Assembly: GCA_000995415.1 (NCBI GenBank)
Contig: LCEX01000012.1
Coordinates: 1 to 58,291 of the forward strand
Direction: 5' to 3'
Length of the DNA stretch: 58,291 nucleotides
Origin: Candidatus Gottesmanbacteria bacterium GW2011_GWC1_43_10
GTDB taxonomy: Bacteria > Patescibacteriota > Microgenomatia > UBA10105
The position numbers and the translations under genes were made by a program. Each line of letters starts with the position of its first letter. Within the stretch, counting starts at the first letter, position 1. This document shows positions 3,936 to 29,858 of this stretch, piece by piece. Below the pieces are notes generated by a model. That model saw nothing but the letters and a program-made list of their open reading frames with translations, searched no databases and was not told the origin of the DNA.

Positions 3936-4145
3936 ATGATACTTTCAATTGGAACATTATTAAGCGGGTTATTCATAAGCCTTCCTGGTTATAGGGCCAT
4001 GAAGGAAAAGAGGATGAAATTAATGCCGATAAACAGAAAAGAAGTTTTAACAGGTGAGGCGGCAGAAAGAGCAGGAAAGCAATTACTAATCGTAGGATTA
4101 ATTGTTTCTATTGTTGGATTAATATTCATATTTTCTTCTATTTAA
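3936..4145 (+). CDS. small two-helix membrane protein
   Basis: A 69-aa ORF with hydrophobic helices at both ends. Confidence 0.4.
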   Translation: MILSIGTLLSGLFISLPGYRAMKEKRMKLMPINRKEVLTGEAAERAGKQLLIVGLIVSIVGLIFIFSSI

Positions 4146-24703: not shown

Positions 24704-24823
24704 TATACAGCCTTTTGATCTCCAACCACCCCTGTCGTAATTCTCCTATATACACCACGTTGGAAAACCAATTTTCGAAATATGCTTGACACCTGGCGGG
24801 GTATATATTACACTGTAATACAT

Positions 24824-25057
24824 ATGAGCACTACTCTTGATCGAAGAATTTTGACTCTCGCTGTCAAACCCGGGCTGGAGCAGGCAATACGGGCCCAGGC
24901 AAAACAAGAAGGAAAAACCACGAGCGAACTTCTGCGGGAAGCAGTACACCAGTATCTTTTGGAAAAGACGCTGGCAAAAATTGAACGGTATGGTGAAAAT
25001 ATCGCCGCTAAGTTGAACTTGGAAACATATGATGACGTGGAACAAATCGGGGGATAA
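24824..25057 (+). CDS. ribbon-helix-helix (CopG-type) antitoxin
   Basis: RILTLAVKPGLEQAIRAQAKQEGKTTSELLREAVHQYL is present. The gene overlaps the downstream PIN gene. Confidence 0.7.
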   Translation: MSTTLDRRILTLAVKPGLEQAIRAQAKQEGKTTSELLREAVHQYLLEKTLAKIERYGENIAAKLNLETYDDVEQIGG

Positions 25058-25463
25058 GCTACGGGTGGTTTTTGACACAAATGTCTTCATCGCCGGCGCC
25101 CTCAAAAGCGGTTTGGTGCGAGAGCTTCTGCATCGGTCAGTGCGGGGAGAACTCAATATACTCACGTCTCAAGAGATATTGCAGGAACTTCAAGAAAAAC
25201 TTTCCGGGAAGTTTCATTGGGACAAGAAACATATTGACGAGTTTCGGGCTTTTCTCCAATCAACCTCTGTAGTCATTTCCGTTATCAGTAAGGTGACTGA
25301 TATCAAAAAAGATCCGGATGACAATAAAGTTCTTACCTGCGCGTTGGACGGAAAAGCACATTTGATCATTTCGTCCGATCGGCACTTGTTAAAACTAAAA
25401 GTATGGCGGGGCATTGCTATTGTTCATCCCAAAACTCTGTCTTGGATGATGCCAAAGCAGTGA
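25029..25463 (+). CDS. PIN-domain toxin (TIGR00305/PIN_3-type)
   Basis: LRVVFDTNVFIAGAL (first acidic residue), ..E.., ..D.. and ..LIISSDRHLL are present. It is paired with the RHH gene. Confidence 0.8.
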   Translation: MMTWNKSGDKLRVVFDTNVFIAGALKSGLVRELLHRSVRGELNILTSQEILQELQEKLSGKFHWDKKHIDEFRAFLQSTSVVISVISKVTDIKKDPDDNKVLTCALDGKAHLIISSDRHLLKLKVWRGIAIVHPKTLSWMMPKQ

Positions 25464-27574: not shown

Positions 27575-27614
27575 TTGCATAGATTCACGTATTTTTGCAT
27601 ACTATGCATAGATT
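27575..27614 (+). promoter_or_regulatory. candidate promoter TTGCAT-N19-TACTAT with palindrome TGCATAcTATGCA and direct repeat TGCATAGATT x2
   Basis: The -35 is at 27575-27580 and the -10 at 27600-27605. The palindrome is at 27596-27608. The direct repeats are at 27576-27585 and 27605-27614. The site is upstream of the MerR-type HTH gene. Confidence 0.4.
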
Positions 27615-27628
27615 TGAAGGATTAACCT

Positions 27629-28363
27629 ATGCAAAATAATCTAATTTCAATAGGAGAAGCCGCAAAGCTCCTTGGCGTTTCAATTGATACATTGAGACGT
27701 TGGGATGTAGTTGGACGTTTATTGTCGGTTCGAACTGGCGTGCGCGGCCATCGGTTTTATCGTCAATCCGATATTTCAGAGTTTTTGCAGGATATTGAGA
27801 CAAAAGCCGACAAATGGGTGCAATCTGCTCACGGAGTTGAACCAGAGCCTGAGATGTATTGTCAAACTCGAGATGTGTTTCAAGCTCGACTCGAACAGTT
27901 CCAATCAAAACTAAGTCGCCTAGTATCATTGCCCATCGTATCACTTGTTACTGCGGTTGCCGGTGAGATTGGTAACAATTCATTTGACCATAATTTGGGT
28001 AACTGGCACGATATCCCAGGCGTTTTTTTCTCATATTCTATTCGTAATAGAGAAGTCATATTAGCTGATCGAGGTCAAGGTGTCTTAACAACGCTCAAAC
28101 GGGTACGACCAGAGTTGAATCGCGCAGATGAGGCATTAAAAGTAGCTTTCACTGAAACCATCTCCGGTCGATTTCCTGAAGCACGGGGAAACGGGTTGAA
28201 ATTTGTAAGATCAATTATTATCGCTCATCCATTAACGTTGTATTTTCGGACTGGCGATGCGTGTCTATACCTAAAACAAAACAGTAAATATGTGATGATT
28301 CGTCAGTCAGAAACACCAATCAAAGGTTGTTTTGCTACAATAGGATTTGAGGAGGCAGTATGA
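27629..28363 (+). CDS. MerR/excisionase-type HTH fused to a GHKL (SpoIIAB/RsbW-like) ATPase/kinase domain
   Basis: The HTH is ISIGEAAKLLGVSIDTLRRWDVVGRL..HRFYRQSDISEFL. The N box is EIGNNSFDHN, the G1 box is LADRGQGV and the G2 box is ARGNGLKFV. Confidence 0.65.
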   Translation: MQNNLISIGEAAKLLGVSIDTLRRWDVVGRLLSVRTGVRGHRFYRQSDISEFLQDIETKADKWVQSAHGVEPEPEMYCQTRDVFQARLEQFQSKLSRLVSLPIVSLVTAVAGEIGNNSFDHNLGNWHDIPGVFFSYSIRNREVILADRGQGVLTTLKRVRPELNRADEALKVAFTETISGRFPEARGNGLKFVRSIIIAHPLTLYFRTGDACLYLKQNSKYVMIRQSETPIKGCFATIGFEEAV

Positions 28364-28626
28364 TTATTCAGGTAAAGAAATTTGGCACCACATTAGTATC
28401 TCGTCCTTCAGGAAAAGAAGCCTGGTTAGCATTTCAACCGGTTTTAAATGAAATTTCAAATGAGGAAGATATAATTGTAGATTTTAGCGATGTAATTGTT
28501 TTAACTCCTTCATGGGCAGATGAATTTTTGACACCGCTTCGAGAGCGTTTCCAAAACCGAGTCAAACTTCAACATACCGATAATCCTTCTGTCATAGCGA
28601 CACTCGCAATACTTGTAAAACAATGA
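28360..28626 (+). CDS. STAS-like DUF4325 protein
   Basis: ..LVSRPSGKEAWLAFQPVLNE..DIIVDFSDVIVLTPSWADEFLTPL.. is present. Its ATG overlaps the upstream stop in ATGA. Confidence 0.7.
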   Translation: MIIQVKKFGTTLVSRPSGKEAWLAFQPVLNEISNEEDIIVDFSDVIVLTPSWADEFLTPLRERFQNRVKLQHTDNPSVIATLAILVKQ

Positions 28627-28802
28627 AAGACATGAATAAAACCATCTTTCTTTGCGCGAGTATGATCTTTTATCGAGATTTCGTAGAAATTAAAGAGCAG
28701 CTTGTGGTAAAAAGATTTACGGTGAAAATTCCTTATTCAGCTCGCGTCATGAAAAGGAATAATGACTTTGAGGTGTCACATTTTAAGGGTGTCTATACTT
28801 AA
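28623..28802 (+). pseudogene. 59-aa remnant resembling the N-terminus of nucleoside 2-deoxyribosyltransferase-like proteins
   Basis: MKDMNKTIFLCASMIFYRDFVEIKEQLVVKRFTVKIPY.. is present. Its ATG overlaps the DUF4325 stop in ATGA. Family members are usually about 130-150 aa. The ORF is below the track's size cutoff. Confidence 0.3.
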
Positions 28803-28883: not shown

Positions 28884-29417
28884 ATGGATAACAACGACAA
28901 ATGTCCCAAATGTGGAGCACCACTTGGGGAGATCATCGAAACCAAAAACGGGCGCAAGTTGCAGCGCTGCAGTACAGCTAGCCCCTGGGATCCCAAAGTC
29001 AAGCCAACCGGATGTACATATGTGAAGTGGTTACAGGTTGAGCCCAAACAACTCGATGAGAAATGTCCCAAATGCGGTAATCCGTTGGTGCTAGCTGTGA
29101 CGCGGTTTGGTAAAAAAATGAAAAAGTGTAGTACTGGTGGGTGGGATGCAGTAGCCAAAAAAGCCACCGGGTGTGATTACATCGAGTGGATTAACGGCAC
29201 GACTGAAAAACTTGATGAAAAATGTCCGGAATGTGGTAATCCGTTGGTACTGTTTACAACAGCTAAGGGCAAACGCCTCAAAAAGTGTTCCACCGCCGGT
29301 TGGGACCGGGTAGCGCGTAAAGCTACAGGATGCACCTATGTCGAATGGCTCAAAGCAGATGCTACTTCTACACCAGCCAATGGTGAAGAATTTCTGCCTC
29401 CGGAACCTGCAGGTTAA
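28884..29417 (+). CDS. stand-alone protein made of three topoisomerase-type C4 zinc-ribbon repeats (YrdD-like)
   Basis: Three ~55-aa repeats are present: CPKCGAPL..RCST..GCTYVKW, CPKCGNPL..KCSTGGWD..GCDYIEW and CPECGNPL..KCSTAGWD..GCTYVEW. Confidence 0.75.
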   Translation: MDNNDKCPKCGAPLGEIIETKNGRKLQRCSTASPWDPKVKPTGCTYVKWLQVEPKQLDEKCPKCGNPLVLAVTRFGKKMKKCSTGGWDAVAKKATGCDYIEWINGTTEKLDEKCPECGNPLVLFTTAKGKRLKKCSTAGWDRVARKATGCTYVEWLKADATSTPANGEEFLPPEPAG

Positions 29418-29481: not shown

Positions 29482-29559
29482 ATGCAAGTTACTCTTTTGA
29501 TGACCAACTCAACGACCAGTTGTTGCAAGTACGTTATTTTGTTAAAAAATAACTTATGA
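29482..29559 (+). CDS. 25-aa upstream mini-ORF overlapping the MGMT start (ATGA)
   Basis: TGtTATAAT (29466-29474) lies 7 nt upstream of ATG 29482. The peptide is MQVTLLMTNSTTSCCKYVILLKNNL. Its TGA 29557-29559 overlaps ATG 29556. The MGMT gene has no SD. Confidence 0.3.
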   Translation: MQVTLLMTNSTTSCCKYVILLKNNL

Positions 29560-29858
29560 CTTTTCGCGAGAAAGTATACGAAATTACCAAACAGATTCCT
29601 AAAGGCAAAGTAGCCACTTACGGACAACTGGCGCGCCTAGTTGGCAATGCAAAAGCAGCTCGGGCGGTGGGAACATTCATGAGAGTTAATCCCAATGCGC
29701 CGCATACTCCGTGTCACCGCGTCGTGGCGCAAGATGGCAGTCTGACCGGTTATTCAGGCGTTGGGGGAGTGGCGGGCAAAAAGAAAATGTTACTTACTGA
29801 AGGCGTGTTTTTTCAAGGAGATAAAGTCGATTTATCCCGCTCAGGATGGCAGAAATAA
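29556..29858 (+). CDS. MGMT-family methylated-DNA--protein-cysteine methyltransferase (C-terminal domain only, active Cys retained)
   Basis: TYGQLARLVGNAKAARAVG...PCHRVV is present. Confidence 0.85.
   Translation: MTFREKVYEITKQIPKGKVATYGQLARLVGNAKAARAVGTFMRVNPNAPHTPCHRVVAQDGSLTGYSGVGGVAGKKKMLLTEGVFFQGDKVDLSRSGWQK

Follow-up and report, generated by a model that had tools for sequence, protein, structure and literature searches.

The 58,291-nucleotide contig LCEX01000012.1 of Candidatus Gottesmanbacteria bacterium GW2011_GWC1_43_10 (assembly GCA_000995415.1), analyzed at its full length and referred to here as the window, carries two overlapping genes, A and B, that encode a DNA-binding GHKL protein and a small STAS-like protein. 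Members of the Candidate Phyla Radiation (CPR; Patescibacteria), to which this organism belongs, have tiny genomes with few recognizable regulators and, to our knowledge, none of their signaling circuits has been characterized experimentally. An earlier, sequence-only reading of the window had described the two genes as a partner-switching-like module followed by a third, decayed gene, and had proposed the arrangement as an undescribed regulatory or conflict system. The window sequence agrees with that description in the positions of the three open reading frames (ORFs) and in the ATGA overlaps at both junctions, A/B and B/ORF3.

27629–28363, + strand: gene A, 244 residues, DNA-binding GHKL protein and predicted Ser kinase
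28360–28626, + strand: gene B, 88 residues, single-domain DUF4325 STAS-like protein
28623–28802, + strand: ORF3, 59 residues, orphan

Domains of the two proteins

Protein A consists of an N-terminal DNA-binding domain, a linker predicted to be helical, and a C-terminal nucleotide-binding domain in which three sequence boxes can be located:

27641–27790, + strand: MerR/excisionase/BldC-like winged helix-turn-helix (HTH), A residues 5–54 (Pfam MerR, 7.4e-10)
27794–27928, + strand: helical linker, A residues 56–100; W63 and Y77-C78-x-T-R81-D82-x-F-x-A-R87 are conserved family-wide
27929–28360, + strand: GHKL (Bergerat-fold) domain, A residues 101–244
27965–27994, + strand: N box, A residues 113–122, EIGNNSFDHN, with E113, N117, and H121
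28067–28084, + strand: G1 box, A residues 147–152, DRGQGV, with D147, G149, and G151
28187–28207, + strand: lid and G2 box, A residues 187–193, GNGLKFV

The HTH had been called MerR/excisionase-type from the letters alone, and profile searches bear this out. Residues 5–54 score above the Pfam cut-offs for MerR, MerR_1, and HTH_17 and pass the NCBIfam model "excise" (29.2 bits; cut-off 28.8); the match to NCBIfam HTH_BldC (NF033787) is sub-threshold (27.9 bits; cut-off 77). The recognition helix reads V-S-I-D20-T-L-R-R-W. When A and its family profile were searched against sequences of the Protein Data Bank (PDB), matches were confined to the HTH, with none to the GHKL domain; they are MerR-type and led by BldC (6AMA/6AMK) and BrlR, at E values of 5e-5 to 1e-3. 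The linker, which is also kept in relatives that lack the HTH, is a candidate sensor or interaction surface by virtue of W63 and the Y77-C78-T-R81-D82 segment.

The order of the N box (ExxxN), G1 box (DxGxG), and G2 box (GxGL) is kept in A. On alignment of 30 homologues (A1) and of 40 homologues with identities down to 28% (A5), residues E113, N117, H121, D147, G149, G151, G187, G189, and L190 are invariant; the ATP-binding positions are retained. The AlphaFold2 model of A (mean predicted local distance difference test score, pLDDT, 86; predicted template-modeling score, pTM, 0.79) places the HTH first, then helices 56–65, 81–95, and 101–121, and then an alpha/beta domain whose predicted fold is the Bergerat (GHKL) sandwich. 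Foldseek comparison of this model with the PDB gave 17 matches at E ≤ 1e-3, all of them TopoII/GyrB/Hsp90-type ATPase domains or Hsp90 complexes, with the best, to TopoII, GyrB, and Hsp90 ATPase domains, at E ∼1e-4. The predicted fold, sub-threshold Pfam matches of family members, and the profile homology to VapK described below uphold the GHKL call for a domain to which Pfam is blind in A itself. The sub-threshold matches came from the homologues of A, 8 of 40 for HATPase_c_2 (best 6.3e-4) and 3 of 40 for HATPase_c; HATPase_c_2 is the SpoIIAB/RsbW-type model.

Protein B is STAS-like, as had been proposed: it passes the Pfam model DUF4325 (PF14213; 28.2 bits, cut-off 23), which also matches all 32 homologues tested. 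Its model (pLDDT 83) resembles RsbS, prestin, and other STAS domains (TM-score 0.62), and the protein ends at residue 88, directly after the last STAS helix. Against PDB sequences, the B profile gave one weak match only, to 9Z7O, "VapS" (E 0.37). The motif P50-S51-W52-x-D54-E55-F56 contains a serine (codon 28510–28512) that is invariant in 32 B sequences from all CPR clades, where the motif reads P-S-W-[AG]-D-E-F, and helix alpha2 of the model begins at this same residue. Ser51 is a candidate phospho-acceptor.

Linkage, distribution, and the third reading frame

The coupling of A and B seen in the window holds elsewhere. Gene B lies directly downstream of A, on the same strand, in 85 of 85 loci, and the two are adjacent in 75 of 80 further metagenome loci, the remaining five being interrupted by contig ends. 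The A stop codon and the B start codon share an ATGA in roughly half of the genome loci. Gene context, on the other hand, differs between loci: all-against-all clustering of flanking ORFs from 80 genomes recovered A in 80/80 and B in 79/80 but any other real gene in at most 5/80, and no conserved partner gene was found within 4 kb on either side of the pair.

Relatives of A of about 244 residues number in the thousands in Patescibacteria, as do those of B. Gene A is encoded in at least 576 GTDB species-representative genomes of Patescibacteria, at 50–83% identity. Among the matches listed, hosts are Levy-, Roizman-, Gottesman-, Curtiss-, Ames-, Collier-, Shapiro-, Woese-, Pace-, Falkow-, Portnoy-, Yanofsky-, Moran-, Magasanik-, Uhr-, Staskawicz-, and Doudnabacteria, Gracilibacteria, and Peribacteria; the higher groups with the pair include Microgenomates, Parcubacteria, Gracilibacteria, Peribacteria, and Doudnabacteria. 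Because identity is this high across phylum-level lineages and the genes always occur as a unit, the pair appears to be a core regulatory device of the CPR. PADLOC (PADLOC-DB v2) matched only the HTH of A (mad1 and an MTase HTH) and neither B nor ORF3, and a relative was present in 1 of 2.9 million viral contigs. The linkage, the lack of a recurring neighbor, the PADLOC result, and the rarity in viral contigs therefore indicate a lineage-wide, stand-alone two-gene operon and not an element of defense islands; the distribution is the pattern of a lineage-wide housekeeping regulator. A literature search for the A-B pair in CPR found nothing, and the sequencing runs that hold the window sequence are DNA metagenomes only.

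Two further observations concern the records themselves. One Peribacteria bin (CAZWLI01) has two A-B copies, at loci L048 and L051 of the same metagenome-assembled genome; in the other species-level genomes listed, the pair is single-copy. Many TPA_asm records with the pair (L007–L010, L012, L017, and others) are titled "uncultured Gammaproteobacteria" or "Pseudomonadales" and are probably mislabeled bins.

The third gene of the sequence-only reading fares differently from the other two. ORF3 has no Pfam match at E = 10 and no match in NCBIfam or PADLOC, and its sole PDB match is to an unrelated protein at chance level (E 1.3). It had been likened to the N-terminus of nucleoside 2-deoxyribosyltransferases, and since no profile supports this likeness, we rejected a remnant of such a gene. 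The exact protein is recorded solely on contigs of this organism that are syntenic with the window, and tblastn found ORF3 in 0 of 82 loci from other organisms. What follows B in the nearest relatives is an unrelated gene, RibD_C (L166) or, on the opposite strand, PMSR (L002); ORF3 as a remnant of the L166 RibD_C gene was likewise rejected, there being no similarity in protein or DNA. Because no third or effector gene is conserved anywhere, the notion of a decayed effector is baseless. ORF3 is not part of the A-B module and may be a young or spurious ORF; as a gene remnant it is not recognizable.

Repeat array at the promoter of gene A and variants of the family

Immediately upstream of A, the window has a short array of direct repeats that overlaps promoter-like elements:

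27575–27614, + strand: predicted promoter/operator array upstream of gene A
27576–27585, + strand: exact repeat TGCATAGATT, overlapping a -35-like TTGCAT at 27575–27580
27596–27605, + strand: degenerate unit TGCATACTAT, in the slot of the -10 element in other genomes
27605–27614, + strand: second exact copy of TGCATAGATT
27624–27633, − strand: inverted one-mismatch copy TGCATAGGTT, spanning the start codon of A, of uncertain significance

The two exact copies of TGCATAGATT are the only ones in the 58-kb window, and two to four direct copies of this 10-bp repeat stand immediately upstream of A in nearly all loci. With one mismatch allowed, 187 matches (16.7/kb) fall in the 140-nt stretches that precede A in 80 genomes, versus 36 (0.06/kb, equal to chance expectation) in the remaining 594 kb of flanks, an enrichment of about 275-fold. 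Copies are spaced by 10, 20–21, or 30 nt. Their start positions, counted from the TG of an extended -10 element (TGnTAnAAT), are -20, in overlap with a TTGCAT -35 element, -10, and +10, which sets the promoter within an array of four units in 10-bp phase. The start codon of A lies about 24 nt past the -10 element. No match to the double repeat was found in viral contigs.

Presence and sequence of the repeat follow the DNA-binding domain. In the metagenome set, the TGCATAGATT motif occurs at 34 of 46 loci whose kinase has a MerR-type HTH versus 0 of 25 loci whose kinase lacks one. Residue 20 of the HTH, in the recognition helix, covaries with position 3 of the repeat: D20 goes with TGCATA (86 loci vs. 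1), and Q, M, T, G, or N at this position go with TGTATA or GGTAGA, never with GCATA. Divergent MerR-type HTHs likewise go with variant repeats. The simplest reading of these patterns would be that the HTH of A binds the repeat array and autoregulates the operon.

The inverted copy at the start codon is less clear. One-mismatch matches to TGCATAGATT occur window-wide at the chance rate, and for the copy at 27624–27633 only its position is suggestive. In many loci, the start-codon region of A, CTATGCAA, contains an inverted partial copy of the repeat, TTGCATAG, which might serve as one more binding site or might result from the conserved Met-Gln start.

Variants of A retain its C-terminal part and vary in what precedes it. 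An exhaustive search with the kinase part alone returned only 304 representatives at 50% identity, among them proteins of about 190 residues without an HTH and proteins with a different winged HTH (wHTH; P0266 and P0334). The helical segment W...YCxTRDxFxAR before the GHKL domain is kept in all variants, and a DUF4325 gene also follows the HTH-less and the wHTH kinases. Kinases fused to the wHTH have a different repeat, TATAGTATATAGTA, at the same upstream place.

Among individual loci, the wHTH-fused kinases at L093:3788–4822, L119:2621–3675, and L150:3716–4766 have promoters with TATAGTATATAGTA-like repeats, and L093 and L119 share, next after B, a syntenic gene whose product of about 350 residues has a hydrophobic N-terminal segment. 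In L090, L091, L092, L095, L103, L114, L116, and L129, the kinase is HTH-less, has about 190 residues, and is followed by a DUF4325 gene of about 93 residues; none of these loci has the TGCATAGATT motif upstream, their GC content is 0.35–0.46, and in most the kinase gene lies near position 4000. Inspection of the sequence of protein P0255 (320 residues) suggests that its W...YCxTRD-GHKL core is fused to an N-terminal domain that is cytidylyltransferase-like (FAD-synthetase/RibL-like). An apparent natural fusion of A and B in L079 was rejected, as a TAA stop lies at L079:4739–4741.

Relation to known systems, proposed mode of action, and neighboring genes

The sequence-only reading knew of no characterized function for this architecture. 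At the level of the superfamily, this has been superseded by the CapK/CapS and VapK/VapS systems (Chambers et al., EMBO J 2026, PMC13373217). CapK (HTH-STAS-GHKL) is a kinase whose activator is single-stranded DNA (ssDNA) and which phosphorylates Ser54 of the repressor CapS (STAS-wHTH). For VapK (STAS-GHKL), mutants, a phage-protection assay, and an AlphaFold 3 model underlie the proposal that it phosphorylates VapS at Ser48 and so releases the toxin VapC (PMC13373217). VapKSC occurs in diverse bacteria (PMC13373217); the terms Patescibacteria, Microgenomates, Parcubacteria, and Levybacteria are absent from the supplementary files of that paper.

Comparisons with the CapK, CapS, VapK, and VapS sequences, taken from the source data of PMC13373217, support homology of both proteins to this superfamily. 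The A-family profile (A5) aligns with a VapK-family profile (A4) over 127 columns that cover the whole GHKL domain, starting at A residue 105 and VapK residue 140 (hhalign probability 93.1%, E 3.1e-7). Against single sequences, E values are 4.2e-4 for A with VapK and 1.1e-3 for A with CapK, and N117 of A aligns with N218 of CapK, the catalytic Asn tested by mutation in PMC13373217. For B, they are 5.5e-5 with VapS and 1.5e-3 with CapS; similarity to the CapK-CapS pair is thus weak on both sides (E ∼1e-3). DUF4325 matches VapS (E 2.7e-17) and does not recognize the STAS domain of CapS. The sequence-only reading had suggested looking for a phosphorylatable Ser or Thr on the STAS-like protein, and the invariant Ser51 of B aligns with phospho-acceptor Ser54 of CapS; in a gapless alignment of B with VapS, Ser48 of VapS falls one residue earlier.

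The pair shares with VapK-VapS the order of a kinase gene followed by a STAS gene, a homologous GHKL domain, a DUF4325 partner, and a Ser at the start of STAS helix alpha2. However, a STAS domain stands at the N-terminus of VapK, which lacks an HTH, whereas A has an HTH and a helical linker and no STAS domain, and VapS has 116 residues, an inhibitory C-terminal helix (residues 94–116), and a cognate VapC gene, whereas B has 88 residues, no such helix, and no third gene. With CapK-CapS it shares an N-terminal HTH on a GHKL Ser kinase and a STAS-protein gene directly after it, and autoregulation of the own promoter is part of the CapKS picture as it is, by proposal, of that for A-B. In CapKS, though, the DNA-binding output lies on the substrate, through the wHTH of CapS and palindromes; single-domain B lacks this wHTH, and in A-B it is the kinase alone that has a DNA-binding domain, with repeats that are direct. 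The internal STAS domain of CapK forms an ssDNA groove (W68 of CapK, F54 of VapK), but residues 56–100 of A are modeled as helices only. Of 443 CapKS cases, 348 have a known or predicted immune operon downstream, whereas the A-B pair has no conserved neighbor. Because A has no STAS domain, B has neither a wHTH nor an inhibitory helix, and no immune operon or toxin accompanies them, the pair belongs to neither named family and is a minimal, distant, and simpler relative of both.

Older models are also instructive. SpoIIAB-SpoIIAA and RsbW-RsbV likewise combine a small GHKL Ser kinase that has an ExxxNxxxH N box with a single-domain STAS antagonist, and in SpoIIAA/RsbV-type antagonists the phospho-Ser lies at helix alpha2. 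Unlike these kinases, A carries a DNA-binding domain, the sequence similarity is below family thresholds, and the A-B operon contains no genes for a sigma factor or a PP2C phosphatase, a comparison limited to the operon, as no genome-wide search for unlinked partners was made. The likeness to a kinase-STAS partner logic drawn in the sequence-only reading was reasonable.

For the DNA-binding side, a close parallel is BldC, a MerR-like wHTH protein that forms head-to-tail multimers on 9-bp direct repeats (Schumacher et al. 2018, PMC5859096). In both BldC and A, the HTH is of the MerR type but has no MerR coiled coil; of the solved HTHs, BldC and BrlR are among the nearest; and the predicted target of A consists of phased 9–10-bp direct repeats in variable number. 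They differ in that BldC, 68 residues long, stands alone and governs a large developmental regulon, whereas the HTH of A is fused to a kinase and has only the promoter of its operon as a known, predicted target, and in the repeat, AATTxxxxC for BldC versus TGCATAGATT for A. From the direct-repeat targets we infer, by analogy, that A works like BldC. Classical MerR proteins are different again: they combine an HTH with a coiled-coil dimerization helix and an effector domain and act on a palindromic operator in a promoter with a 19–20-bp spacer, whereas A, despite passing the Pfam MerR model, goes with direct repeats in 10-bp phase and has a C-terminal GHKL domain.

We interpret A-B, with a probability of about 60%, as a stand-alone, self-regulating two-gene signaling operon of Patescibacteria that is distantly related to CapK-CapS and VapK-VapS. 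In this proposal, the HTH of A would bind head-to-tail on the 10-bp TGCATAGATT array, in which its own -35 and -10 elements and transcription start are embedded, and would thereby autoregulate the operon. By homology to CapK/VapK and SpoIIAB-type systems, we infer that the GHKL domain binds ATP and B and transfers phosphate to Ser51 of B. Binding of B versus release of phosphorylated B might then alter the occupancy or oligomerization of A on the operator, might free B for an unlinked target, or both; this feedback and such a target are speculative. So is the input, which could be the ATP/ADP state, a nucleic acid, or some ligand bound by the W63/YCxTRD linker.

Several results weigh against this interpretation. 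Outside its HTH, A has no Pfam match even at E = 10, HATPase_c and HATPase_c_2 included, neither A nor its homologues reach any Pfam GHKL gathering threshold, and the top structural matches of A are ATPases (TopoII, GyrB, and Hsp90), not kinases. The STAS domain that forms the ssDNA-sensing groove in CapK and VapK is absent from A, so the activation mechanism of CapK is not simply transferable. Deletion of the CapK HTH gave no phenotype (PMC13373217); an HTH on such a kinase is therefore not necessarily its output. The operon and its neighbors yielded no phosphatase partner. On the DNA side, the array of the window itself is partly degenerate and a simple sigma-70 scan calls no promoter there, the covariation of residue 20 with the repeat (Fisher 7e-11) is uncorrected for phylogeny, and neither the 58-kb window nor the 594 kb of flanks yielded a further operator array. 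A transcriptional regulon beyond the A-B operon itself is unsupported.

The pair extends the CapK/CapS-VapK/VapS superfamily to a minimal form, a GHKL domain and a bare STAS protein, to a non-defense, lineage-wide context, and to a DNA-binding domain on the kinase. New is a minimal, CPR-wide, apparently self-regulating variant whose kinase has a DNA-binding domain on a phased direct-repeat predicted operator. That the predicted operator covaries with one residue of the recognition helix makes it a testable protein-DNA code and a handle for finding regulons in CPR genomes. A bolder version, possible and on balance doubtful, would make the pair a master switch throughout the CPR: the GHKL kinase would act as a transcription factor in its own right and polymerize head-to-tail on phased 10-bp repeats, the minimal STAS protein would set DNA occupancy through phosphorylation of Ser51, the state of the switch would report a global condition such as energy charge or DNA damage, and more promoters would be controlled. 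If true, an "anti-sigma kinase" and a "regulated transcription factor" would be fused in one protein.

The strongest alternative to a DNA-level output is that the HTH serves autoregulation only and the output is post-translational, unphosphorylated B (or A) sequestering an unlinked protein that phosphorylation of B releases; the protein sequestered could be one of the many PIN/VapC-like toxins that CPR genomes encode, or else a sigma factor or some other enzyme. VapS, the closest characterized DUF4325 protein, is an antitoxin freed from VapC by phosphorylation (PMC13373217), and there is a PIN subgroup coupled to DUF4325 genes (PMC5499597). The silent deletion of the CapK HTH (PMC13373217), the lack of operator arrays beyond the promoter of the operon itself, and the existence of HTH-less kinase and B pairs, which must work without DNA binding, are also in keeping with it. 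But B, at 88 residues, has no C-terminal helix of the kind required for inhibition of VapC by VapS, none of the 80 genomes revealed a conserved partner gene near the pair, and the PIN pair of the window (24782–25463) is not linked to the module elsewhere, and we consider this output unlikely.

Less likely still, A could be an ATP-driven DNA-binding switch or clamp in the style of GyrB, Hsp90, and MORC and not a kinase, with B acting, unphosphorylated, as a regulatory subunit for ATP turnover or for oligomerization on the repeat array. The Foldseek ranking, the conserved E113 at the general-base position of the N box, and a repetitive DNA target that fits a filament or clamp would agree with this. 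We regard it as quite improbable: the domain has only about 140 residues and no transducer domain, like SpoIIAB, its profile homology is to the VapK/CapK kinases and its sub-threshold Pfam matches favor HATPase_c_2, and the invariant Ser of B is exactly at the phospho-acceptor site.

A three-gene conflict or defense module with a decayed effector, or a CapKS-type controller of an adjacent immune operon, is very improbable: although CapKS and VapKSC, to which the pair is related, have immune associations (PMC13373217), an ATGA links ORF3 to B, and toxin–antitoxin-like genes are nearby in the window, ORF3 has no homologue outside contigs of its own organism and no family match, the genes after B in L166 and L002 are unrelated, PADLOC matches only the HTH, a relative is present in just one viral contig, and lineage-wide spread with high sequence conservation is unlike defense islands. 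The conflict-system part of the sequence-only reading and its variable third gene are thus abandoned, with flanks that differ per genome, no gene recurring in more than 5 of 80 loci, and a range of at least 576 genomes.

The neighbors of the pair in the window are as that reading had named them. Overlapping small genes at 24782–25057 and 25029–25463 (+ strand) are, from inspection of their translations, ribbon-helix-helix antitoxin/PIN toxin-like, and are unlinked to the A-B module in other genomes. The same is true of a gene at 28884–29417 (+ strand), which encodes a 177-residue protein of three tandem repeats of about 53 residues each, with the unit CPxCG...CST.GWD...TGC.Y.EW, a topoisomerase-I-type zinc ribbon. 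The gene at 29556–29858 (+ strand) encodes a protein without the N-terminal domain of Ada/Ogt-type proteins, a stand-alone MGMT DNA-binding/active-site domain of 100 residues in which PCHRV is present.

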